A DNA stretch of 64,000 nucleotides, taken from NCBI GenBank assembly GCA_030595325.1, contig JAUVDN010000002.1, forward strand, positions 705 to 64,704, given 5' to 3'. The notes beneath the pieces were generated by a model. It did not search any database, had not been told where the DNA came from, and saw nothing but the letters and a program-made list of their open reading frames with translations. Both the position numbers and the translations under genes were made by a program. This document shows, one piece after another, positions 547 to 63,435 of the stretch. Every line of letters begins with the position of its first letter. The first letter of the stretch is position 1. The stretch comes from Gammaproteobacteria bacterium (lineage in GTDB: Bacteria > Pseudomonadota > Gammaproteobacteria > SZUA-229).

Positions 547-1599
547 ATGAGACCAGTCCATCTTCTAACCGTAATAGAAAAAGAGTTTTTAAGTGCTTCT
601 GAACATAAGGGGTTAATATACCACACCCCTGTGATGTTGTGGGGTGCGCCAGGTGTTGGCAAATCGCAGATGGTGGCTCAGGTTGCCGAACGGCAAAACA
701 CACCACTGATTGATATCCGTTTGTCACAGATGGAGCCCAGTGACCTGCGCGGCATTCCATTTAAAGTAGGTGATACTGTCGAATGGGCAGTGCCTGCGAT
801 GTTACCTAATGCAGAGCGTCACGGTAACAACGGTATTTTATTTCTCGACGAAATTACGTCAGCTCCGCCCAGTGTGTCAGCTGCTGCGTATCAATTAATT
901 CTTGATAGAAAACTAGGTGAGTATGAAGTACCTGATGGCTGGGCGATTATTGCTGCAGGTAACAGGCAGGGTGATCGTGGTGTGACCTACAGCATGCCCG
1001 CACCGTTAGCGAACCGTTTCTCGCATTATGAAGTTGATATCAATCTGGATGACTGGGTTGCATGGGCTTATGCTAATGGCATCGACGAACGTGTTATTGC
1101 CTTTTTGCGTTTTCGTCAGGATCTATTGTTTGAGTTCGACGCATCGCAAAATCCAGTGGCGTTTCCTTCACCGCGTTCGTGGGAATTTGCACATCGTGCA
1201 TTACATAAATTTGAAGACTACCCTGAACTGTTTTCAGGTGCATTACAGGCCTGTGTAGGAAAAGCGGCCGGAATCGAACTGGCGGCATTTATCGCCAGTC
1301 TGGATCAGTTGCCGGATCTTGACGCTATCATCAAAGGCGAAGAAGTTGATACACCCAAAGAAATCGATTTACAGTATGCGGTAGCAACTGCGTTGGTTGG
1401 TCGTGCTATCCGTGCCAAAGATACGGATGATGCGATGAAGGTTCACGGAAATATTTTAACTTACGCCAACCGTTTCCCGCAGCGTGAAATGGGTGTGATG
1501 ATGGTTTCAGATATGCATCGTGCTATTGGACAGGATATTTTTTCAGTGCCGGAGTTTGCCAGTTGGGCTGACAAGATTGCTGACTTGATGCTTTATTAA
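547..1599 (+). CDS. MoxR-family AAA+ ATPase (AAA_5-like)
   Basis: Walker A GAPGVGKS and Walker B ILFLDEI are present. The size (350 aa) and single AAA+ module are typical of MoxR/RavA/CbbQ-type ATPases that pair with VWA proteins. Confidence 0.8.
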   Translation: MRPVHLLTVIEKEFLSASEHKGLIYHTPVMLWGAPGVGKSQMVAQVAERQNTPLIDIRLSQMEPSDLRGIPFKVGDTVEWAVPAMLPNAERHGNNGILFLDEITSAPPSVSAAAYQLILDRKLGEYEVPDGWAIIAAGNRQGDRGVTYSMPAPLANRFSHYEVDINLDDWVAWAYANGIDERVIAFLRFRQDLLFEFDASQNPVAFPSPRSWEFAHRALHKFEDYPELFSGALQACVGKAAGIELAAFIASLDQLPDLDAIIKGEEVDTPKEIDLQYAVATALVGRAIRAKDTDDAMKVHGNILTYANRFPQREMGVMMVSDMHRAIGQDIFSVPEFASWADKIADLMLY

Positions 1600-1603
1600 A
1601 GCA

Positions 1604-1695
1604 ATGAATAACGAATAATGAATAGTGAATAATTAGAAGCTAAAAATATGGTTTATTCTCTCAGCATTATTCAGTATTCAGTATTCAGTATTCAT
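1604..1695. repeat. Palindromic element. Left arm AATGAATAACGAATAATGAATAGTGAATAATT and right arm its near-exact reverse complement (ATTATTCAGTATTCAGTATTCAGTATTCATT), about 30 bp apart, between the ATPase and VWA genes.
   Basis: Seen by direct reading. Members of the same heptamer (TGAATAA) family recur at 10522..10658 and 11318..11342. Confidence 0.8.
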
Positions 1696-1704
1696 TAAGC
1701 TGTT

Positions 1705-2964
1705 ATGTCTAGCTTCCCCGATGTTGAACAAAAACTTGCTGCAGCCAGAATACGTTTAATTCTGGACAAGCCTTTTCTAGGCGCGCTGGTTTTACGACTA
1801 CCGATGGTGGCCGGTGATTCCAAATGGTGTGAGTCAACCTTCAGTGACGGTAAAACATTTTATTACAATCACGATTACATCGATGCTCTTGATCAAGAGC
1901 AGACGCAATTTGCGCTTTCACATGAAGCGCTGCATTGTGCACTTTCACATTTTCATCGCCGTGGCCATCGGGTAAAACACCGTTGGGACCTGGCCTGCGA
2001 TTATGCGGTTAACCCTCTATTAATAAATGATGGCTTAAAGCCGACACCCGATGCCATGCACCTTCGCGAATATGAGGGTATGACGGCGGAAGAAATCTAC
2101 CCTTGTCTCGAAGATAATGATAATGATGGCGAACGGGATTTAGAAAGTAAAAAGCAATCTGATAATGCTGATAGTGATGATGAACAATCAAGTCAGGGCA
2201 ATGGCGGTGGTGGCAAGGAAAAGGAAAAACAAAACGACGAGCAGAGTGAAGGTCAGGGCGAACAGGATAAAGATCAGGATGATGCGGGTAAGGGTGGCTC
2301 AACGCCGCAACCAGCAGGATTGTCTCAGCAAGAAGAGGATGAGTTAAGTCTGCAATGGGAGCAACGTCTGGCAGGCGCTGCACAACAGGCATTACAGTCA
2401 GGTAAGTTAGAAGGTGAAATGGCTAGAATGGTTGATCATCTGCTGCAGCCAAAACTACCCTGGCGCATGTTGCTTGCACGTTATATGTCAGCCACCGCCA
2501 GGGAAGATTACAGTTATACAAGACCTTCATCACGCCGTGGAGATCCGGCGGTTTATCCGAGTATGCGTAGCAACGAGACTAATATCGTTGTTGCTGTTGA
2601 TACCAGCGGTTCGATAGACCAGGAAGAAATCGAAGAATTTATTTCAGAGATCGATGCAATAAAAAGTCAGGTGCGTGCCAGTGTTACGCTGCTTACTTGT
2701 GATTCAAAATTAAATTATGGTTGTCCCTGGTTTTTTGAGGCATGGGATCAGTTTCAGTTTGACGTGGAGATTCGTGGCGGTGGTGGCACAAACTTTAAAC
2801 CAGTTTTTGAGTGGGTCGAAAAGCAGGATAAAGCACCAGATTTACTGGTTTATTTTACTGATGCAGATGGTGTGTTTCCAGAAGTTGAACCAAATTTCCC
2901 TGTGACATGGTTGGTCAAGGGTAAATCAAAAGTGCCTTTCGGTGTAAGGGTTCAGTTAAATTAG
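1705..2964 (+). CDS. VWA-domain protein with N-terminal zincin-like metallopeptidase motif (DUF2201/COG3864-like partner of MoxR ATPases)
   Basis: There is an HExxH motif (SHEALHCALSH). A long acidic, Gly-rich low-complexity linker follows. The C-terminal domain carries a MIDAS-like DxSGS motif (VAVDTSGSI). The stop codon abuts the next gene start (2964/2965). Confidence 0.7.
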   Translation: MSSFPDVEQKLAAARIRLILDKPFLGALVLRLPMVAGDSKWCESTFSDGKTFYYNHDYIDALDQEQTQFALSHEALHCALSHFHRRGHRVKHRWDLACDYAVNPLLINDGLKPTPDAMHLREYEGMTAEEIYPCLEDNDNDGERDLESKKQSDNADSDDEQSSQGNGGGGKEKEKQNDEQSEGQGEQDKDQDDAGKGGSTPQPAGLSQQEEDELSLQWEQRLAGAAQQALQSGKLEGEMARMVDHLLQPKLPWRMLLARYMSATAREDYSYTRPSSRRGDPAVYPSMRSNETNIVVAVDTSGSIDQEEIEEFISEIDAIKSQVRASVTLLTCDSKLNYGCPWFFEAWDQFQFDVEIRGGGGTNFKPVFEWVEKQDKAPDLLVYFTDADGVFPEVEPNFPVTWLVKGKSKVPFGVRVQLN

Positions 2965-5061: not shown

Positions 5062-5886
5062 TTAATCAATATCACGCAGTAATTCATTTAAGCCAGTCTT
5101 ACCACGAGTTTTTTCATCTACCTGTTTAACGATTACTGCGCAGTAAAGACTGTATGTACCGTCTTTGGATGGTAGGTTACCGGATACAACAACAGAGCCG
5201 GCTGGTATGCGACCGTATGAAATTTCACCGGTCATACGATTAAATATTTTTGTGCTTTGGCCGATGTAGACACCCATTGATATAACAGAGCCTTCTTCAA
5301 CGATAACACCTTCTACAACTTCTGAGCGTGCACCGATGAAACAGTTGTCTTCAATAATAGTTGGAGAGGCCTGTAGTGGTTCTAAAACGCCACCAATGCC
5401 AACACCGCCAGAGAGGTGAACGTTTTTACCTATCTGTGCACATGAGCCGACTGTTGCCCAGGTATCGACCATAGTGCCGGTATCAACGTAAGCACCAATG
5501 TTTACGTATGACGGCATCAGTACTACGCTTGGCGCAACATAAGAACCAAAGCGAGCTGTTGCTGGTGGTACCACGCGGACACCTGATTCACGAAATTCTT
5601 TTGTGTTTAGGTCGGCAAATTTGGAATTAACTTTGTCGTAGTAATTGGTGAAGCCGCCTTTGATAAATTCGTTATCATTGATGCGGAAAGAAAGCAACAC
5701 TGCTTTTTTCAACCATTCATTGACTACCCAGTCGCCATCAATTTTTTCAGCGACACGTGCTTCACCTGAATCGAGTAAGTTTACCGCCTGTGTAACAGCA
5801 TCAGAGATGTGTGTTTCTACGTTACGTGGTGTGATATCGGCGCGGCGTTCGAATGCTTCTTCTATTATGCTTTTTAATTCAGACAT
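5062..5886 (-). CDS. dapD: 2,3,4,5-tetrahydropyridine-2,6-dicarboxylate N-succinyltransferase
   Basis: 274 aa, near-collinear with E. coli DapD (for example [47 protein letters not shown]). Confidence 0.92.
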
Positions 5887-5927
5887 GGTGTGTTCTCCAA
5901 AAAATGTTTGTTTCTAATTGATTATTT

Positions 5928-7148
5928 CTAATTGTTTGTGTTTAATGTTTGTATGTATTCTTTAATTCGATTGGCAGCGGTAATGCACTCATCTAATGGC
6001 GCAACCAATGCAAGACGGACGTGATTTTTTCCAGGGTTTATACCATCGCTTTCACGGGATAGGTAACTGCCTGGTAGTACGGTGACGTTTTGTTGTGCAA
6101 ACAAATCTTTAGCAAAATTTTCATCATCGATGGGTGTGTTTAACCATAGGTAAAAACCAGCATCTGGCAGTGTTACGTTGATGACCGGTTTTAATATTTC
6201 AATGACAGCATCAAACTTTTTAACGTAAAGTTCTCGGTTGTGTTTGACGTGTGTTTCATCATTCCATGCTTCTATGCTGGCGATTTGGTGCACAGGTGGC
6301 ATGGCACACCCGTGATACGTGCGGTAGAGCACATATGATTTAATCAGATTTTCATCACCGGCAACAAAACCTGAGCGCATACCGGGAAGGTTTGAGCGTT
6401 TCGATAAACTATGAAACACGATGCAGTTTTCAAAAGATTTGTTGCCGTATTCTTCAGCGGCTTCTAATAGTCCTGCTGGAGGGTTGCTTTCATCAAAGTA
6501 AATCTCTGAATAACATTCATCAGAGACGATAGTGAAATTGTGTTTTAGTGCGAGAGCTATCAGCTTTTTGAGTTGCTGTTTTGAGATAACACTACCAGTA
6601 GGATTACCCGGTGTGCAGATGTAGATAATCTGACAGCTATCCCAGGTGCTCTCTTCAATCGCATCAAAATCGGGCAAATAATTATTTTCTTTTTCTGTGT
6701 TGTAGAAATAAGGTTCGGCTCCTGATAGAAAGGCAGCTCCCTCATATATTTGATAAAAAGGGTTCGGCATTAATACCAGTGCACCATCAGAGCGATTGAC
6801 CATGCATTGAGCGAAGGAAAATAATGCTTCACGTGTGCCTGTTACGGGTAGGATGTTTGTTTCAGCATCGAGCGCGTCTGCCGCTAATTTAAATCGACGT
6901 GTTAACCAGTTAGCGATAGCTAATCGTAATTCCAGACTGCCTTTTGTAAGCGGGTAGCGATTAATCTGGTTCAGATTGTTGGTAATAGATTCCAGTACAA
7001 ATTTTGGTGCGTCATGTTTAGGTTCGCCGATAGAGAGTGCGATGTGACCTTCGATAGCCGGTTGACCATTTTCTAGCTGGCAGCTTGCTTTTAAAGCGTT
7101 GAGCTTTTCAAACGGGTAGGGTTGAAGTTTTTGTAAATCTGGATTCAT
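5928..7148 (-). CDS. dapC: Class I aminotransferase, DapC-type succinyldiaminopimelate transaminase
   Basis: 406 aa fold-type I aminotransferase with an N-terminal LQPYPFEKL motif. It lies immediately upstream of dapD, as in beta- and gammaproteobacterial dapC-dapD operons. Confidence 0.65.
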   Translation of the reverse strand: MNPDLQKLQPYPFEKLNALKASCQLENGQPAIEGHIALSIGEPKHDAPKFVLESITNNLNQINRYPLTKGSLELRLAIANWLTRRFKLAADALDAETNILPVTGTREALFSFAQCMVNRSDGALVLMPNPFYQIYEGAAFLSGAEPYFYNTEKENNYLPDFDAIEESTWDSCQIIYICTPGNPTGSVISKQQLKKLIALALKHNFTIVSDECYSEIYFDESNPPAGLLEAAEEYGNKSFENCIVFHSLSKRSNLPGMRSGFVAGDENLIKSYVLYRTYHGCAMPPVHQIASIEAWNDETHVKHNRELYVKKFDAVIEILKPVINVTLPDAGFYLWLNTPIDDENFAKDLFAQQNVTVLPGSYLSRESDGINPGKNHVRLALVAPLDECITAANRIKEYIQTLNTNN

Positions 7149-9302: not shown

Positions 9303-9389
9303 TGGTACCGGAGGCCGGACTTGAACCGGCACTCTATTGCTAGAACGGGATTTTGAATCCCGCGTGTCTACCAATTCCACCACTCCGGC
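9303..9389 (-). tRNA. tRNA-Leu (anticodon CAA)
   Basis: The reverse complement reads GCCGGAGTGGTGGAATTGGTAGACACGCGGGATTCAAAATCCCG...GGTTCAAGTCCGGCCTCCGGTACCA. This gives a cloverleaf with a long variable arm, anticodon loop TTCAAAA and a 3' CCA. Confidence 0.85.
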
Positions 9390-9468: not shown

Positions 9469-9771
9469 CTATTTTGGAAAGACTTTTTTAAATGGTTTGA
9501 CGGTTACCTTATCGTAAACACCGGCAGCGACATACGGGTCAACATCTGCCCAGCTTGTGGCATCTTCTAAATTATCAAATTCAGCAACCACCAGACTGCC
9601 GCTAAAACCAGATTCACCGGGATCTTCACTGTCAATGGCAGGGTGAGGGCCAGCGAGAATTAAACGTCCTTGTTCCTGCAGAGCGGTCAGGCGTTCCAGA
9701 TGTTCAGGTCTGGCTGCCAGTCTATCTTGCAGACTGTTGGCAACGTCTTGTGCAATGATTGCATATAACAT
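9469..9771 (-). CDS. YciI-family protein
   Basis: About 100 aa with YciI-like size and pattern. It is adjacent to yciB, as in enterobacteria. Confidence 0.5.
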
Positions 9772-10448
9772 TATGCTTTATCTCCATTGTCATCCAAATC
9801 TTTAGTGTCGTCGTCTTTCCCTTTTAAGTCATCTTCAGAGATGTGGCGTGACAGATATAACGCCTGCAGGATAACAAAACCAATAGTGAGTCCCATCAAG
9901 CCGAATAGTTTGAAATTAACCCAGGTATCCATTCTGGCTTCTGGTGTTGCACCGACGTTGTAGTAAAAAGCAACATATAAGTTTGCCGCACCACTGATAA
10001 AAAAGAAGGTGACCCAGGAGAGGTTTAACGTTGACCAGACTTTTTCAGGTAGCTCAATGTGCTCCCCCATCATACGTTGAATAATGGGTCTTTCGCCAAC
10101 GTGCATACTGCCAAGAAAAACACCGGCAAATAACCAGTTCAGTACTGTCGGTTTCCATTGAATAAATGCAGGGTTGCCAAAAAAGATGGTGATACTGCCG
10201 AGTACGGTAATCAGTACCAATGAAAAAATATGCATACGTTCAAATTTGTGTGTTTTGAACCAATGCACGCCGACCTGAATAAAGCTGGCAAGGATGGCCA
10301 TACCGGTTGCAACGATAGTGGCGGCGATAAAATCTGGCTTTGCTGGGTCAATCAGTTGACCGATAAAAGTATTATCAATTAGAAAACTTGCCTGATAATA
10401 ACTAACAAAGAATAGAATAATTGGAAAAAAATCAAATAGTAACTTCAT
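9771..10448 (-). CDS. yciB: Intracellular septation protein A (YciB)
   Basis: [17 protein letters not shown]...[24 protein letters not shown]...VNFKLFG parallels E. coli YciB (MKQFLDFLPLVVFF...[25 protein letters not shown]...VNFKVFG). An extra internal insertion and an acidic tail are present. Confidence 0.8.
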
Positions 10449-10521
10449 TATCTTAATGTGTTTTATTGGCTTGGTGTTAGCCTTGCTGTTTATCGAAGGC
10501 TGGCATTATACCGAACTTCGT

Positions 10522-10658
10522 TAATGAATAATGAATAATGAGCAGTGAAGAATAGAAAGAATTTTTATCGCTGGTTTTACATAATTTGTTATTGGTAAAA
10601 TATCAGTAAGTGATATTTTTGTTTTTAATTGTTAATTATTCACTATTCATTTTTCATT
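10522..10658. repeat. Second copy of the AATGAATAATGAATA palindromic element (forward arm 10522..10554, inverted arm 10634..10658) in the yciB / yciO divergent promoter region
   Basis: The arms read aatgaataatgaataatgagcagtgaagaatag and aattattcactattcatttttcatt. Confidence 0.7.
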
Positions 10659-10686
10659 AATTTTTCACAACGTGTAAAATTCCCCC

Positions 10687-11304
10687 ATGAGTCAGTATTT
10701 TGAAATCCATCCGGAAAATCCACAAAAGCGTCTAATAAAACAAGCGGTAGATATTATTCATAAGGGTGGGGTGATTGTCTATCCAACGGATTCCAGCTAC
10801 GCACTGGGCTGTCATATCGGCGATAAAAACGCGGTTGAGCGGCTACGGCGGATTCGACAGATTGATGATAAACATAACTTAACGCTGGTCTGTCGTGATC
10901 TGTCTGAAATTGCGACCTATGCAAAAATTGAAAATACGGATTATCGTCTGCTCAAGTCATTAACACCGGGTCCATATACCTTCATCCTTCCTGCGACTAG
11001 CGAGGTTCCTCGTCGTTTGATGCACCCGAAGCGCAGACATATCGGGCTACGTGTTATGAATCATCCGGTGGTGAACGAGCTGCTTGATGAACTGGGTCAG
11101 CCGTTGATTAGCTGTACTCTGGTGATGCCGGGCGAGGAATTGCCGGTTACTGAGGCCGAAGATGTCCGTTCCATGCTGGAAAAGCATGTTGACCTGATTA
11201 TCGATGGTGGTCATTGCGGTATCGAACCAACCACGGTAATTCGATTGACCGATGGTATCCCTGATATCAGGCGTCATGGTAAGGGTAAAGACCATGGGCT
11301 TTAA
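10687..11304 (+). CDS. yciO: YrdC/Sua5-family L-threonylcarbamoyladenylate synthase paralog YciO
   Basis: [53 protein letters not shown] is near-identical in pattern to E. coli YciO ([42 protein letters not shown]...). Confidence 0.85.
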   Translation: [205 protein letters not shown]

Positions 11305-11317
11305 ACAGCCCATGGTC

Positions 11318-11342
11318 AATGAATAATGAAAAGTGAATAATT
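11318..11342. repeat. Solo arm of the same element (AATGAATAATGAAAAGTGAATAATT) downstream of yciO. It is preceded by a perfect 9-bp hairpin ACCATGGGC-tttaaaca-GCCCATGGT (11291..11316) spanning the stop codon.
   Basis: Direct reading. Confidence 0.7.
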
Positions 11343-11530
11343 AAAAAACTCCAGCTAGAACAGTAGGTCAGCATAAGCGGTAGCGTTGCTGGCGATGGTG
11401 TGCAGCATGACGATGCCTGAAATGGCAGAGCCTTAATTCAGGCCTGCAATTTTTAACTGCTCAAACTTATTTTTAAGGTGTAAACTGCGCCCTGTAAAAT
11501 AATTAACAACAAGTTTCTTTATACTATTAG

Positions 11531-12184
11531 ATGTCTTCAATCCCTGATATTGCCTATACCATCGCTGTTTGGGCTGCTCCTATATTATTTGCTATCACTT
11601 TGCATGAAGCGGCGCATGGCTGGGTTGCCAATAAGTTAGGTGACCCCACAGCAAAAAATCTGGGGAGAATTACGATAAACCCTATAAAACATATCGATCC
11701 CATGGGGACGGTAGTTGTACCGCTATTTCTAGCGATGGTGAGCCCGTTTGTTATGGGGTGGGCAAAACCCGTTCCGGTGCAACCTCGTTACTTTAAATCA
11801 CCGCTGCTAGACATGGCGCTGGTTGCTGTAGCTGGCCCTGTATCAAATTTTGTCATGGCTTGCATCTGGGCAATGCTCGTCAAGCTGGCCTATATGTCTT
11901 TGGATCACTCACCATTGCTGACTTTCCTGACCGAGATGTGCAGGAACGGTATTATTATTAATATCGTGCTGATGGTGCTGAACTTGCTTCCGATTCCGCC
12001 TTTAGATGGTGGCCGGGTGGTCGCGGGTATCTTGCCCAAGCCTATACTGGCGCCTTACATGCAGCTGGAACGCTATGGCATGATTATTATATTGTTGTTA
12101 CTTGTTAGTGGTTTACTCGGTAAGGTATTGTGGCCATTGGTGCAGCATTTCGTCAAACTGGTTGGTTTTATTTTTGGACTTTAA
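11531..12184 (+). CDS. Site-2 protease family (peptidase M50) membrane metalloprotease
   Basis: An HEAAHG HExxH motif sits in the first TM helix. The protein is multi-pass hydrophobic and has an LLPIPPLDGG motif. Confidence 0.7.
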   Translation: MSSIPDIAYTIAVWAAPILFAITLHEAAHGWVANKLGDPTAKNLGRITINPIKHIDPMGTVVVPLFLAMVSPFVMGWAKPVPVQPRYFKSPLLDMALVAVAGPVSNFVMACIWAMLVKLAYMSLDHSPLLTFLTEMCRNGIIINIVLMVLNLLPIPPLDGGRVVAGILPKPILAPYMQLERYGMIIILLLLVSGLLGKVLWPLVQHFVKLVGFIFGL

Positions 12185-14404: not shown

Positions 14405-14475
14405 AGCGATAGTTAAATCTACTTGTTAAGTAGAGTGTTAATTAGGCAACAACCATTTAGAAAATAATTATTAAT

Positions 14476-14550
14476 ACAGAATAATTAAAGCAGCAATAAT
14501 TAAAACAGCAGTAATTAAAACAGCAATAATTAAAACAGCAATAATTAAGA
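14476..14550. repeat. 15-bp tandem repeat (CAGCAATAATTAAAA) x5 between scpA and scpB
   Basis: Direct reading. The units differ by single substitutions. Confidence 0.8.
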
Positions 14551-14590
14551 AAGCAACAACCGCCGAACTTAAAAAGCTTGAGGCTATGTC

Positions 14591-26554: not shown

Positions 26555-26602
26555 GCTCATGTATTATTGATGTAACAAGTAAAAATTTTGATGATGCTGT
26601 TT

Positions 26603-26658
26603 TAAGACACACAAATTAAGACACACAAATTAAGACGTACAAATTAAGACGTACAAAT
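26603..26658. repeat. 14-bp tandem repeat x4 (TAAGACACACAAAT / TAAGACGTACAAAT)
   Basis: Direct reading shows two identical copies followed by two copies of a variant with a single substitution. Confidence 0.8.
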
Positions 26659-26819
26659 TAAGAAGTTCACATAAAGATTCGGGGCATGTAGGTCAGGGGA
26701 AAATTCTTCCGGAAGATGAGCTAGGTAGTGATAAGCGTCGGTGCGCGTTGTAGATGCATTAACTTTTAACCAAATTGAAGCAAAATATTTTTAACCAGAA
26801 TTTTAAGCAAGAATAAACT

Positions 26820-28221: not shown

Positions 28222-28235
28222 AATTGAGAATAGTT

Positions 28236-29564
28236 TTAAGTTTTAAGTTTTAAGTCTTTGCAGCCTTGTCTTGCTAATAAAGCACTACCGTAGCAGGCTT
28301 CACTATTGACTGCATTTAGGATATCTATACCTGTCGTGCGGGCGCGTATTTTTGTCCATGCCGTATTTTTATTGCCGCCGCCGGTGGTAAATATTCTTCG
28401 TGGTAATGCTGCACCTAGTTCTTTAAGTTTGTTGTAGCCTTGTGCTTCGACAGCAGATATTCCTTCCAGTAATGCCTGAAAGAATTCCACATTAGAAGAG
28501 GGGCGTGGACTGATGCTACTCTGTTTGTTGCTATCATTTAACGGGAAGCGTTCGCCTGTGCCTGGTAATGGATAATAATTTAATTCGGTCGGCTGTTCAG
28601 GTTTTAGTTGTGGCATCATTTCATCGAGTTGCATTTTTGTAAAATGCTGCAATAGAACCGCACCACCTGAATTAGAAGCGCCACCCACCAGCCAGTGACC
28701 ATTTATACGGTGGCTATAGATACCATACTCAGCTGAAAAAATGGGTCTGTTGGTGAAAATTTTAATGACCAGGGTACTGCCAAGGGAGGTGACAGCATCA
28801 CCTATTTTATTTGCACCTGTTGCCAGCACTGCGGCGTTACTGTCGGTGGTGCCGGCAATAACAACACAGTCTTCAGCCAGTGCATATCTACCAATAAGTG
28901 CCGGTTTTACATTGGCAATAACCGTTCCAGGGGTAACAACTTTGGGTAATAGATTTACTGCGATAGCTGTTTCTTCGTTTGCTTGAAGCCAGTCAGGCCA
29001 TTGTTGGGTAATGCTGTCGTAACCCATTTTCAAACAATTGTTCTCATCGCTGATACCATAGAGCCCTGTCAAAGACGCAGCTAACCAGTCAGCCTGATGA
29101 CAGAAAATTTCAGTTTGTGGAAACCTCTCTAATAACAAGAGCACTTTAGCCAATGAAGAAGTTGCGCTATGCACTGCGCTTTTAGCTGGTGCAAACCGAC
29201 TGATTTTTTCAGCCTGTTTTTGACTTTGCTGATCGTTATACATCAATGCAGGTGAAAGTGCGCTGCCATCTTTTTTACAGGCGATCAGCGTACTCGATGT
29301 GCCATCAATAGAAATGGCTTTAATCTGGTGTACGGTTTCCTGTCGTTGTAACTGGTGGCTTATCTCGCTTAGTAATTCATCGAGTTGAATCAGCCAGGGC
29401 CCTGGATCTTGTTCATTGACACCATTTTGTGAAGTGTTTGAATTGCATTGACTGCTATCAAACAACAAGTGGTGTTTTATAATTTCTTCGCCATTGTCAT
29501 CGATGCAGCAGCCCCGGATGCCCGAGGTGCCTATGTCAATGCCAAGGTAAACAGCGGTGCTCAC
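28236..29564 (-). CDS. FGGY-family carbohydrate kinase
   Basis: An N-terminal LGIDIGTSGIRG actin-fold ATPase motif. 442 aa. Confidence 0.6.
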   Translation of the reverse strand: MSTAVYLGIDIGTSGIRGCCIDDNGEEIIKHHLLFDSSQCNSNTSQNGVNEQDPGPWLIQLDELLSEISHQLQRQETVHQIKAISIDGTSSTLIACKKDGSALSPALMYNDQQSQKQAEKISRFAPAKSAVHSATSSLAKVLLLLERFPQTEIFCHQADWLAASLTGLYGISDENNCLKMGYDSITQQWPDWLQANEETAIAVNLLPKVVTPGTVIANVKPALIGRYALAEDCVVIAGTTDSNAAVLATGANKIGDAVTSLGSTLVIKIFTNRPIFSAEYGIYSHRINGHWLVGGASNSGGAVLLQHFTKMQLDEMMPQLKPEQPTELNYYPLPGTGERFPLNDSNKQSSISPRPSSNVEFFQALLEGISAVEAQGYNKLKELGAALPRRIFTTGGGNKNTAWTKIRARTTGIDILNAVNSEACYGSALLARQGCKDLKLKT

Positions 29565-49292: not shown

Positions 49293-49697
49293 AGGTTTGT
49301 TTTGTTGTAGTTAGGTAACAATATAAGCCTTATTGTCGAAAATGCTTACAAAAAATTACTTGTAAATTCAATCTAAAAATAACTCTCGTTGTATATCTAA
49401 ACCTGGCGCGTGCAGAATGGTTTTACGGACGTAGAAAGAAAACTGTTTGCGCTATTCTGGACGGACTTGAGATTGATGAACAACACATCGGTCTGTTGCA
49501 GATTCATGAAGACCTTGGTGTGCGCGCTCATCAGCCTATTCCTTTCTTGAGTCGTACAAACAAACTGAATGCATGGGTTGGCATGTTGTTGCGCAAGTAA
49601 GATAGCCTCTGGGATGGTAATTATCCGTTCCGGTTCTAATATTAACTTTGCCCTGCTTATATTTTAACTCTAAATTTTAAACATAAAATATAGATAC

Positions 49698-49738
49698 AAA
49701 TTTTAGATATTAATTTTAGATATAAATTTTAGATATAA
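49698..49738. repeat. AT-rich 13-bp tandem repeat (AATTTTAGATATA) x3
   Basis: Direct reading shows three tandem copies in the convergent intergenic region. Confidence 0.7.
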
Positions 49739-49779
49739 AGCAATCAACAAAAATATTAGACAAACTGTCTCAGTATAAA

Positions 49780-62223: not shown

Positions 62224-63336
62224 ATGACAAAAGCGATGAATAATCACGTCGAATTTATGCAGTGTGCGATTAGGCTGGCTAAGAAAGGTTTATATAGCAC
62301 TGATCCAAACCCCTGTGTTGGTTGCGTTATCGTTAAGAACGGTGAAATTGTTGGCGAAGGCTGGCACCAGCAAGCCGGTGAAGGTCATGCCGAAGTTAAT
62401 GCGCTAAAGCAGGCCGGTAGTAATGCCGAAGGCGCGACGGTATATGTCACACTGGAGCCGTGTAGTCATACCGGAAAAACACCGCCGTGCGCAGATGCGC
62501 TAATAGCGGCTGGTGTAAAAAAAGTTTTTATAGCGATGATGGATCCTAACCCACTGGTTGCTGGCAGTGGCTTGAAAAAGCTACAGGATGCCCATATAGA
62601 AACCGACAGTGGATTGCTTGAAATTCAGGCGCGAGAATTAAATCCGGGTTTTGTGAAACGGATGGAATCTGGGCGACCTTACGTACGTGTTAAAATGGCA
62701 ATGAGCCTGGATGGCCGCACCGCGATGGCATCAGGTGAAAGTCAATGGATTAGCAGCGATGCCTCGCGACAAGATGTGCAGCGAATGCGAGCTCAAAGCT
62801 CAGCGATTTTGACCGGGATAGACACGGTACTGGCAGATGACCCGTCGATGAATGTTAGATTGACCGCTGAAGAGCTGGGTATTGAGTCAATTACTAAACT
62901 AGTCAGGCAGCCAAAACGTATCGTGCTTGATAGTCAGTTAAGGATGCCTGCTGCAGCAAAGATATTCTCAGTTGATGGTGACTGCATTGTATATACCACG
63001 GTAAATGTGGATAACAAAGATAGTCGCCCGTATACAATTGAAAGTATTGCATCAGCAGATGGACATGTGGATCTTCATGCGTTGATGAAGGATTTGGCAG
63101 ATAAAGAAATTAATCTGCTTCATGTGGAAGCAGGTTCGGTCTTATGTGGTGCTCTTTTAAAAAATGACCTCATTGATGAAATCATTATCTACATGGCGCC
63201 ACATATTATGGGTGATAATGCGAAAGGATTGTTCCACTTGCCCGGATTGGAAAAGATGAAGGATAGGGTTTCGCTTAACATCAAAGATGTGCGATCTATC
63301 GGTAAAGATCTTCGAATCTCTGCGCTTTTAGAGTAG
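62224..63336 (+). CDS. ribD: Bifunctional riboflavin biosynthesis protein RibD (deaminase/reductase)
   Basis: A CMP/dCMP deaminase zinc motif (HAEVNAL...PCSHTGKTPPC) plus a C-terminal reductase domain. It follows glyA-nrdR, as in many proteobacteria. Confidence 0.9.
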   Translation: MTKAMNNHVEFMQCAIRLAKKGLYSTDPNPCVGCVIVKNGEIVGEGWHQQAGEGHAEVNALKQAGSNAEGATVYVTLEPCSHTGKTPPCADALIAAGVKKVFIAMMDPNPLVAGSGLKKLQDAHIETDSGLLEIQARELNPGFVKRMESGRPYVRVKMAMSLDGRTAMASGESQWISSDASRQDVQRMRAQSSAILTGIDTVLADDPSMNVRLTAEELGIESITKLVRQPKRIVLDSQLRMPAAAKIFSVDGDCIVYTTVNVDNKDSRPYTIESIASADGHVDLHALMKDLADKEINLLHVEAGSVLCGALLKNDLIDEIIIYMAPHIMGDNAKGLFHLPGLEKMKDRVSLNIKDVRSIGKDLRISALLE

Positions 63337-63344
63337 ATTAATTA

Positions 63345-63435
63345 AAGCAGATTAATTAAAGCGGATTAATTAGAGCAGTGTAAATAGAACAGAGCAAACA
63401 GAACAGAGCAAACAGAACAGAGAAAACAGAACGAT
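63345..63435. repeat. Two adjacent short tandem repeat blocks: (GATTAATTAAAGCR) x3 then (AACAGAGCAAACAG)-like x3.5
   Basis: Direct reading of the ribD downstream region. Confidence 0.75.

Follow-up and report, generated by a model that had tools for sequence, protein, structure and literature searches.

Inverted heptamer arrays border the yciO gene in a clade of uncultured marine Gammaproteobacteria

What are the AT-rich heptamer repeats that face each other across intergenic regions in a 64,000-nucleotide stretch of a Gammaproteobacteria bacterium genome (assembly GCA_030595325.1, contig JAUVDN010000002.1; the whole stretch is hereafter called the window), and are they members of a dispersed family or the property of particular genes? 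The original prediction described arms of TGAATAA-like heptamers as inverted pairs at 1604..1695, between an ATPase gene and a von Willebrand factor A (VWA) gene, and at 10522..10658, between the divergent genes yciB and yciO, with a solo arm at 11318..11342. Direct reading of the sequence confirmed heptamer arrays at all three sites as first described. The element consists of AT-rich inverted arrays, (TGAAWAR)n - spacer - (YTWTTCA)n, that can be folded into A/U-rich stems of 25-35 bp, and it is tied to one locus rather than dispersed. From the comparison of relatives, the arrays are old bookends of yciO in a clade of uncultured marine Gammaproteobacteria, one pair lying between yciB and yciO and another between yciO and the next gene.

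The closest relatives of the window YciO (85-94% identity) are all encoded by metagenome-assembled genomes; the records bear the label Gammaproteobacteria or Thiotrichaceae, and the samples were of marine sediment, cold crustal fluid and vents. We took yciO neighbourhoods from 80 genomes, read both intergenic regions, and counted the 26 loci in which YciO is at least 85% identical (L-numbers denote individual loci or contigs). TGAAWAR arrays, built of the units TGAATAG, TGAATAA, TGAAAAA and TGAAAAG, flank yciO on one or both sides in 17 of these 26 loci. Runs of at least two strict units number 45 within 350 bp of yciO, compared with 7 in the other 357 kb of the 26 loci; two of those 7 are the window pair at 1604-1695, one belongs to L008, as the distant left arm of a yciO pair whose spacer is long, and four are bare two-unit doublets. 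A further 79 kb from relatives yielded no arrays when searched, and outside the yciO flanks there is essentially one hairpin, that at window position 1604, in ~436 kb. The dispersed family that had been proposed is not borne out by arrays so nearly confined to the yciO flanks, nor does their distribution lack positional bias or look like chance, the outcomes named beforehand as speaking against the prediction: the bias is strong. It is directed not to promoters in general but to the flanks of a single gene.

The two flanks share a layout. Upstream, the order is yciB start, ggcATTATAcc, (TGAAWAR)n, a spacer (40 to >200 nt in relatives), (YTWTTCA)n, a conserved TTAATTTTACACAAC(A)GTGTAAAATTC and the yciO ATG; downstream, the yciO stop codon is followed by (TGAAWAR)n, a spacer, (YTWTTCA)n, GTGTAAACT and the next gene. 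Between species the copy number varies from 2 to 12 units (8 in L005, 12 in L020), and whole arms are gained or lost. The arrays of L001-L004, which represent four samples of one species, are identical, and thus the arrays are not hypermutable on short time scales. Among near-perfect arrays of about three or more copies in all loci, period 7 was found 25 times, as opposed to 3, 2, 1 and 0 times for periods 5, 8, 10 and 11, respectively, an excess that makes the heptamer arrays a real trait of the group. Neutral spacers in these genomes are unalignable; the 65 nt preceding the yciO ATG are 80% identical across 7 species (alignment A1), and a second arm type, CTATTCG TTATTCA CTATTAA CTATTCA CTGC, is common to nine regions (alignment A2). 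None of the models discussed below explains the strong tie to yciO, and of the loose ends this one is the most interesting.

The two arms of a pair evolve together. Complementarity is higher between arms of the same locus than between arms of different loci (mean best ungapped score 20.2 vs 15.1; 19 loci, permutation p = 1e-4). The arms of L012 pair at 28 of 28 positions, an odd TGAACAG unit included, and those of L026 at 34 of 35, the upstream and downstream arms of the latter being nearly identical, with the same order of variants. Moreover, the unit itself can be exchanged: in L001-L004 (YciO 94% identical), the upstream yciO site is occupied by another heptamer (AAGTTTA) with the inverted pair retained, and the arms GTAAGTT TAAAGTT TAAAGTT TTAAGTT and AACTTAC AACTTTA AACTTAT AACTT form a 73-nt hairpin (z -7.2). 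Related inverted units of the GTAAGTT type are found at the same site in L017 and L018, and within one arm of L010 the units change from TGAATAG to TTAAAAG. Because the arms co-evolve and the unit has been exchanged with pairing kept, the comparison argues that the paired structure, not the sequence, is what persists; concerted evolution of the arms without selection could give the same pattern of pairing.

In the window, Tandem Repeats Finder called period 7 at all three sites (Table 1). The pattern TGAATAATGAATA, with up to 2 mismatches, was matched 20 times, compared with 4.4 +/- 2.0 times in shuffles (maximum 9; 0 of 100 reached 20), and 14 of the 20 matches are located in the three sites. 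At 1604-1695, a repeat search recovered an arm pair of 16 nt with 94% complementarity, and over 1603-1696 the arms are complementary at 27 of 31 positions, that is, terminal inverted repeats are present. RNA folding of 1595-1710 gave a minimum free energy of -28.4 kcal/mol with a stem of ~27 bp (z -4.3, 0 of 200 shuffles as good). Thus, the predicted inverted pair stood up to sequence reading, repeat finding and shuffling, and its potential to form a hairpin or cruciform is real. A copy does lie within the yciB/yciO divergent promoter region, where the predicted pair exists as well; it is far less perfect, forming a looser pair than the first, with a spacer of ~76 nt (fold of 10510-10670, -34.2 kcal/mol, z -3.35). 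The third site holds a single arm in the window, as described, which is the leftover of a downstream pair: the right arm is intact in relatives L005, L009, L012 and L026 and eroded in the window. Hairpins of relatives, folded as whole pairs, reach z -5.5 to -9.8, and the predicted stems of the window and relatives span 27-35 bp. All arms are direct tandem heptamers without internal dyad. Left arms at the ATPase gene and at yciO begin 6-25 nt past the stop codon, and right arms stop 10 nt (DUF2201) and 19 nt (yciO) short of the ATG. The units TGAATAA and TGAATAG each hold TGA plus TAA or TAG, which places stops in all frames.

Table 1. Positions of the heptamer arrays, candidate promoter motifs and adjoining genes in the 64-kb window (gene families from a Pfam scan of 10 open reading frames, ORFs)
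Feature	Position	Strand	Description
MoxR-like AAA ATPase gene	547-1599		Pfam AAA_5
Hairpin 1, left arm	1605..1632	+	TGAATAA CGAATAA TGAATAG TGAATAA; starts 6 nt past TAA stop (1597-1599) of the MoxR-like ATPase gene
Hairpin 1, spacer/loop	1633..1666	+	34 nt; unlike spacers of other copies
Hairpin 1, right arm	1667..1694	+	TTATTCA GTATTCA x3 (reverse complement TGAATAC x3 + TGAATAA); stops 10 nt before DUF2201 ATG (1705)
DUF2201_N/DUF2201 (VWA-like) gene	1705-2964		Pfam assignment
yciB	9771-10448	-	Pfam IspA
TATAAT (ggcATTATAcc)	10505..10510	-	Conserved block in relatives; 14 nt left of left arm; probable -10 of yciB
Hairpin 2, left arm (yciB/yciO intergenic)	10525..10559	+	TGAATAA TGAATAA (10525-10538), then degenerate TGAGCAG TGAAGAA TAGAAAG
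Hairpin 2, right arm	10636..10667	+	TTATTCA CTATTCA TTTTTCA (10636-10656), ttaa, TTTTTCA (10661-10667)
Conserved block TTTTTCAC-AAC-GTGTAAAAT	10661..10680	+	Palindrome (TTTTACAC-N3/4-GTGTAAAA in relatives; TTTTTCAC..GTGTAAAA in window)
yciO	10687-11304	+	Divergent from yciB; Pfam Sua5_yciO_yrdC
Solo left arm	11320..11340	+	TGAATAA TGAAAAG TGAATAA; starts 16 nt beyond yciO stop
GTGTAAACT	11478..11486	+	GTGTAAAMT motif; follows right arm of downstream hairpin in relatives; precedes M50-like gene, probable -10 region of that gene
M50-like gene	11531-12184		Next gene after yciO
Second-family solo array (AGTTTTA)3.4	28232..28255	+	Between two minus-strand genes; overlaps upstream stop codon, ends 10 nt before next start

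The copy at 1604-1695 has a different history. We recovered the ATPase-DUF2201 junction from eight relatives (ATPase 88-93% identical), none of which carries a heptamer hairpin there, and thus this copy is a recent, lineage-specific gain. The junction spacers of the eight relatives, 39-116 nt long, differ in each lineage and are unalignable, and the junction is a variable spot where the window lineage acquired the hairpin. The order of units in its left arm (TGAATAA CGAATAA TGAATAG) resembles that of a yciO-flank arm in L026 (TGAATAA CGAATAG TGAATAG), a likeness that hints at copying rather than de novo origin. The borders carry a possible imperfect direct repeat, TAAAGC/TAAGC, for which L209 and L212 support different empty-site readings, the spacers of all relatives differing. 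No common spacer sequence was found among the three window copies, which have only 7-8-mers in common. An exact-sequence look-up of the window MoxR-like ATPase protein returned no identical entry on record. Two of the relatives, L207 (1921-2406) and L210 (2553-3085), carry at this junction an inserted small gene of the PDDEXK_3 family (PF13366), bordered by inverted repeats of its own that are composed of short G+C-rich units (cacggag acacagag ... ctctgtgtctctgtgg).

The same architecture occurs in unrelated bacteria, for the most part at the 3' ends of genes. When public metagenome contigs were scanned for four TGAAWAN units, at least 120 loci from many habitats (23-68% GC) were obtained. Among the matches listed, to which all counts in this paragraph refer, none comes from the window's clade, and (TGAAWAN)n-loop-(NTWTTCA)n hairpins are present on contigs of 36-64% GC. 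The inverted partner lies downstream of the array in 17 cases and upstream in 3, so that the purine arm comes first at 17:3; given that both arrangements read alike on either strand, this bias is real, and with it transcription from either side meets the A-rich arm first and the T-rich arm last. The unit type co-varies between arms (TGAATAT/ATATTCA, TGAAAAT/ATTTTCA, TGAATAG/CTATTCA and TGAAAAG/CTTTTCA). Of the 17 hairpins, 9 have a left arm that begins at the upstream ORF's stop codon or overlaps it, and ~7 have a convergent gene ending at the right arm; two occur between divergent genes, and two occupy a narrow gap from stop to start codon. The flanking genes are ordinary bacterial genes, and some hairpins (L117, L181, L052) enclose a G+C-rich inner hairpin. 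Arrays of TGAAWAN are common in very diverse metagenomic and viral contigs; the latter frequently carry arrays alone and include a few pairs with two-unit partners, and no hairpin with 3+3 units and an 8-38 nt loop was found in them. BLAST against E. coli genomes gave nothing and that against plasmids only a 37-nt low-significance match to Clostridium tetani plasmids.

Three of the more distant loci have features of their own. In L181, an unrelated metagenome contig, a 23S_rRNA_IVP gene (PF05635, E 1.5e-26; 701-1187) sits in the loop of a TGAAWAR/YTWTTCA hairpin, and G+C-rich terminator-like hairpins adjoin each arm; as the single such case among the 120 loci listed, it led us to reject the arms as general flanks of inserted small genes, in the manner of intervening-sequence cassettes. 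L052, a more distant relative, has (TAAGTCG)8 right after a stop codon (5565-5690), then a G+C-rich hairpin GGCTCCCC-ATA-GGGGAGACC and the inverted units GACTTAC AACTTAT, another heptamer family in the same layout. In the unrelated contig L193, (TGAAAAT)4 at 1865-1892 lies 34 nt past the stop codon of a distant Sua5/YciO/YrdC-family gene (26% identical to window YciO), which may be a coincidence.

Tentatively, we favour the reading that the arrays are slippage-prone A/U-rich stems that may serve as intergenic RNA punctuation, with the T-rich arm at yciO possibly forming, in addition, the upstream part of a promoter. Transcription of both arms, which is plausible for 1604-1695 and downstream of yciO, would put a long stem of double-stranded RNA just behind a stop codon, both inside the ATPase-DUF2201 operon and downstream of yciO. 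Such a stem could punctuate the transcript by attenuation or termination, by providing a site for RNase III-type processing, or by shielding the 3' end, and the TGA/TAA-rich arm would close all three reading frames. The element evolves in 7-nt steps, on this reading by slippage that alters the length of the stem, with the arms kept complementary, and at yciO the gene-facing T-rich arm would also have become fixed as the -35 and further-upstream promoter part.

The closest mechanistic precedent, provided that the window arrays are transcribed, as we infer, would be the (ATCTTTC)n repeat in the promoter/5' untranslated region of hmw1A/hmw2A in Haemophilus influenzae, which is transcribed as one arm of a long hairpin and cleaved by RNase III (PMC12721329; PMC8262952). 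Repeat number sets the stem length in that hairpin, and RNase III targeting, shown by experiment, tunes expression (PMC12721329). Both are heptamer arrays beside a promoter in a gammaproteobacterium and contribute an arm to a long hairpin. However, the partner arm of the hmw repeat is a G-rich unique sequence, whereas in the window clade it is an inverted array, and the hmw repeat is hypervariable within populations (phase variation), unlike the arrays that are identical in four samples of one species (L001-L004).

A number of observations weigh against RNA punctuation. Co-transcription of the two arms is presumed, and the predicted yciB and yciO promoters point away from the upstream hairpin; the copy there is therefore probably not transcribed as a unit and needs a DNA-level function or none, because, if the promoter assignments are right, that hairpin lies outside both transcripts. 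A scan for canonical intrinsic terminators across 1450-1800 and 10400-11600 found no site, the stems being A/U-rich with loops of >=34 nt and having neither a G+C-rich stem nor a 3-8 nt loop. Mismatches between arms, read on the sense strand, comprise 10 G-U and 9 A-C; without an excess of G-U there is no RNA-specific signature. About one-third of the clade is without one or both hairpins and the downstream right arm of the window has decayed, and thus the element is dispensable. Spacers of >200 nt occur, with other insertions inside, and the 1604 copy is mismatched regularly, once per heptamer, at position 7 of each right-arm unit.

Some of these observations suit another explanation, which we regard as possible though on balance unlikely: that the arrays are a self-perpetuating mutational by-product, AT-rich heptamer microsatellites renewed by slippage, with arms matched by template switching or gene conversion, that persist at yciO by descent and do nothing important. 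The unit number of 2-12 between species, the coming and going of whole arms, the eroded downstream right arm of the window and the mismatch spectrum without an RNA signature all speak for such a by-product, as does the homogenization of the arm at 1667-1694 to a private TGAATAC variant that mismatches the left arm in every unit. The frequency of TGAAWAN arrays in diverse metagenomic and viral contigs and the many other intergenic short tandem repeats in the window genome and its relatives point the same way. Harder to reconcile with it are the 45 arrays at yciO against about one hairpin in ~436 kb, persistence across species whose other spacers do not align, and the identity of four samples of one species, which leaves no room for short-term hypermutability; the 17:3 orientation bias among the matches listed needs selection or a polar mechanism.

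A rather unlikely alternative is that the element acts at the DNA level, with the heptads as tandem protein-binding sites, or as T-rich tracts resembling UP elements, in control of the yciB, yciO and M50-like promoters, and with inversion arising from divergent promoters or DNA looping. It would then be similar to the heptad arrays to which ribbon-helix-helix repressors bind: the omega repressor of plasmid pSM19035 binds operators of contiguous 7-bp units, direct and inverted, beside promoters, which differ from the window arrays in unit sequence, in having no long spacers and in being plasmid-borne with the repressor gene nearby. In favour of DNA-level action, at least 17 loci retain the unit TGAAWAR, and every arm, in its T-rich reading, points away from the pair to the gene beside it. 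The right arm also lies at a constant distance from the conserved GTGTAAAAT/TAAAAT block and contributes a -35-like hexamer. In the window, this -35-like TTTTCA (10651-10656) falls in the third right-arm unit (10650-10656), 18 nt from TAAAAT, in a consensus-match promoter scan that returned 7 matches where 3.5 were expected, numbers similar to those that arise in shuffles. The -10-like TAAAAT within the 10661-10680 palindrome ends 6 nt before the yciO ATG (10687), so that the yciO mRNA may be leaderless, and the palindrome itself may be an operator between -35 and -10. GTGTAAAMT occurs twice in the 64-kb window, once in each yciO flank and nowhere else, which makes the two flanks paralogous composite regions and would place one composite control region at both. 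In the subclade of L009, L010, L011, L021-23 and L026, the spacer contains the promoter-like GTGTAAAAT motif, an arrangement like that of looping operators, and the right arm alone would be transcribed. The predicted promoters, moreover, leave the upstream hairpin untranscribed. DNA-level action is hard to square, in turn, with the unrelated heptamer at that site in L001, L017 and L018, where pairing is kept; with the 1604-1695 copy, which has no promoter-like site; and with the left arms after yciO and the ATPase gene, which face a 3' end. The similar hairpins that unrelated bacteria have between convergent genes cannot serve as operators, and no candidate regulator was identified, the neighbouring ORFs having no Pfam DNA-binding domain (10 window ORFs scanned).

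A wider extension of the RNA reading, which we consider doubtful, would make the (TGAAWAN)n-loop-(NTWTTCA)n hairpins an undescribed widespread intergenic class, in which the strict 7-nt register would come from RNase III gauging the length of the stem or from a protein of 7-nt footprint (of the cold-shock/S1-type oligonucleotide-binding fold) that melts it, so that the number of repeats would set a tunable switch of termination or processing. In the window clade the element would have been captured at yciO, with YciO as a party to its own regulation. YciO belongs to the YrdC/Sua5 family, members of which are reported to bind double-stranded RNA, and on that ground the hairpins on both sides of yciO could be its autoregulatory target.

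That the arrays are a small non-autonomous mobile element of occasional transposition, with 1604-1695 as a recent insertion, seems improbable. The original prediction had offered a miniature inverted-repeat transposable element (MITE) or a family like the repetitive extragenic palindromes (REPs), and the absence of the copy from the junctions of eight relatives (ATPase 88-93% identical), the L026-like order of its arm, which suggests copying, the near identity of the upstream and downstream arms of L026 and the possible imperfect direct repeat TAAAGC/TAAGC at the borders would suit it. Yet neither form of the proposal is supported, because the copies have no common internal sequence and no convincing target-site duplication, the putative one being imperfect and relatives disagreeing on the empty site, and the arrays lie almost only beside yciO in ~436 kb. 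For a classical MITE, the terminal inverted repeats are present, but the copies are neither dispersed nor alike internally; no transposase was seen near any copy, although no search was aimed at one. REPs, their mosaic assemblies (BIMEs) and their hairpin-forming doublets (REPINs) are likewise intergenic, often placed after stop codons or between convergent genes, with two inverted arms in a hairpin of ~90-100 nt, and protection of mRNA 3' ends and attenuation of transcription have been proposed as their roles. On the features compared, this class does not fit, either: each REP is itself an imperfect palindrome of ~20-40 nt, the unit recognised by REP-associated tyrosine transposases (RAYTs), whereas the window arms are direct tandem heptamers, and REPs occur as tens to hundreds of dispersed, RAYT-linked copies, compared with about one window-type copy outside yciO in the ~0.5 Mb sampled. 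By kind the element would belong with the known heptamer-repeat and REP-like elements, as a new form of them.

A Fur-type or other metalloregulator or ArgR-type operator of short AT-rich repeats is highly improbable: GAATAAT repeats loosely resemble the GATAAT hexamer, but the repeats have a period of 7 instead of 6, at most 11-12 positions of the 19-bp consensus GATAATGATAATCATTATC are matched in any of the three regions, which is shuffle level (mean 11.8, maximum 15), so that the resemblance to Fur boxes first noted falls away, and the flanking yciB, yciO and MoxR ATPase genes are not iron genes. Readings beyond those named here keep a slight probability.

Several other classes were considered and set aside. 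A replication origin or terminus, or a DnaA-box cluster (TTATTCAC like TTATNCACA), was rejected because GC skew is positive throughout the window and position 9 never matches, and integron attC sites and TyrR boxes because GTTRRRY and TGTAAA-N6-TTTACA are not in the required arrangement, a point checked by sequence reading only. Rfam (gathering threshold for the whole window; E<=1 for 1-12.5 kb) returned only a tRNA at 9306-9389. Nor is a missing Shine-Dalgarno sequence special to the genes behind the arms, given that a Shine-Dalgarno-like tetramer 4-20 nt upstream of the start was found for only 11 of 50 putative window genes, a rough count in which starts were taken as the first ATG/GTG/TTG. 

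Some known systems come closer. With bidirectional intrinsic terminators the hairpins share the order of an A-rich tract first and a T-rich tract last on either strand (17:3 orientation), sites after stop codons and between convergent genes and, in some examples (L181, L117, L052), an enclosed G+C-rich inner hairpin; they differ in that the window copies have no G+C-rich stem or short loop and one of them lies between divergent genes.

Among heptamer repeats, the TAACTGA direct repeats of marine Beggiatoaceae, some Cyanobacteria and Bacteroidetes (MacGregor 2015, PMC4679880), for which RNA-binding proteins with a 7-nt footprint have been proposed (PMC4679880), come closest by description. They too are 7-nt units in short tandem intergenic sets with stops in all three frames, often overlap the stop codon upstream or come to within a few nt of a following start, show 7-nt-step indels (there between strains), and occur in Shine-Dalgarno-poor hosts (~25% of genes in Beggiatoaceae, 11 of 50 in the window). 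The window unit differs, however, and is not a rotation of TAACTGA; its arrays are inverted pairs forming hairpins, as opposed to one inverted case in 170 Beggiatoa sets; and it is bound to the flanks of one gene (three sites in the 64-kb window and none in the 79 kb from relatives), compared with ~170 sets per genome. In Geobacter metallireducens, families of 4-5 tandem heptanucleotides have been annotated as putative global regulatory sites (PMC2700814); they share the 7-bp unit length with the window arrays and differ in unit sequence. Bacterial intergenic heptamer repeats, including the cyanobacterial short tandemly repeated repetitive sequences, the Beggiatoaceae TAACTGA sets and the Geobacter families, have filled catalogues for decades, with next to nothing to explain what they do; the one well-studied case is the hmw repeat of H. 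influenzae, which works as an RNase III-cut RNA hairpin. What is added here is comparative data that the catalogues lack: one site occupied in at least 17 related loci, with arms that co-evolve and a unit that has been exchanged. One conserved gene, two flanks and natural variants of 2 to 12 copies make a small, defined experimental system and, if the link to yciO is functional, could offer a first way to learn how a widespread gene of unknown role is regulated.

Other repeats accompany the element. Near yciO in L006, L016, L020, L023, L025 and L027, hairpin spacers or flanks contain an insertion of another palindromic repeat (gtcatctcgacc...gagagatct...ggtcgagatgac), which looks like a separate small dispersed palindromic element of the clade. 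Just past the putative yciB -10, on the yciB strand (~10480-10504), there is a small stem, also present in L001, L009 and L016, with two sides that co-vary from species to species (GCCTT/AAGGC, CCTTC/GAAGG, GTGCC/GGCAC); the yciB mRNA may carry it as a 5'-end hairpin. The solo array at 28232-28255 belongs to the same family as the unit that replaces TGAAWAR upstream of yciO in L001-L004. Additional intergenic tandem repeats were identified in the window at 5905-5952, 14466-14556, 26602-26677, 26764-26815, 49671-49739 and 63335-63432, with periods of 13-15 nt (several of 14, that is, 2 x 7) and 25 nt. The window genome seems generally prone to short intergenic tandem arrays; each of these repeats fills the gap between two genes, in one case between convergent genes.

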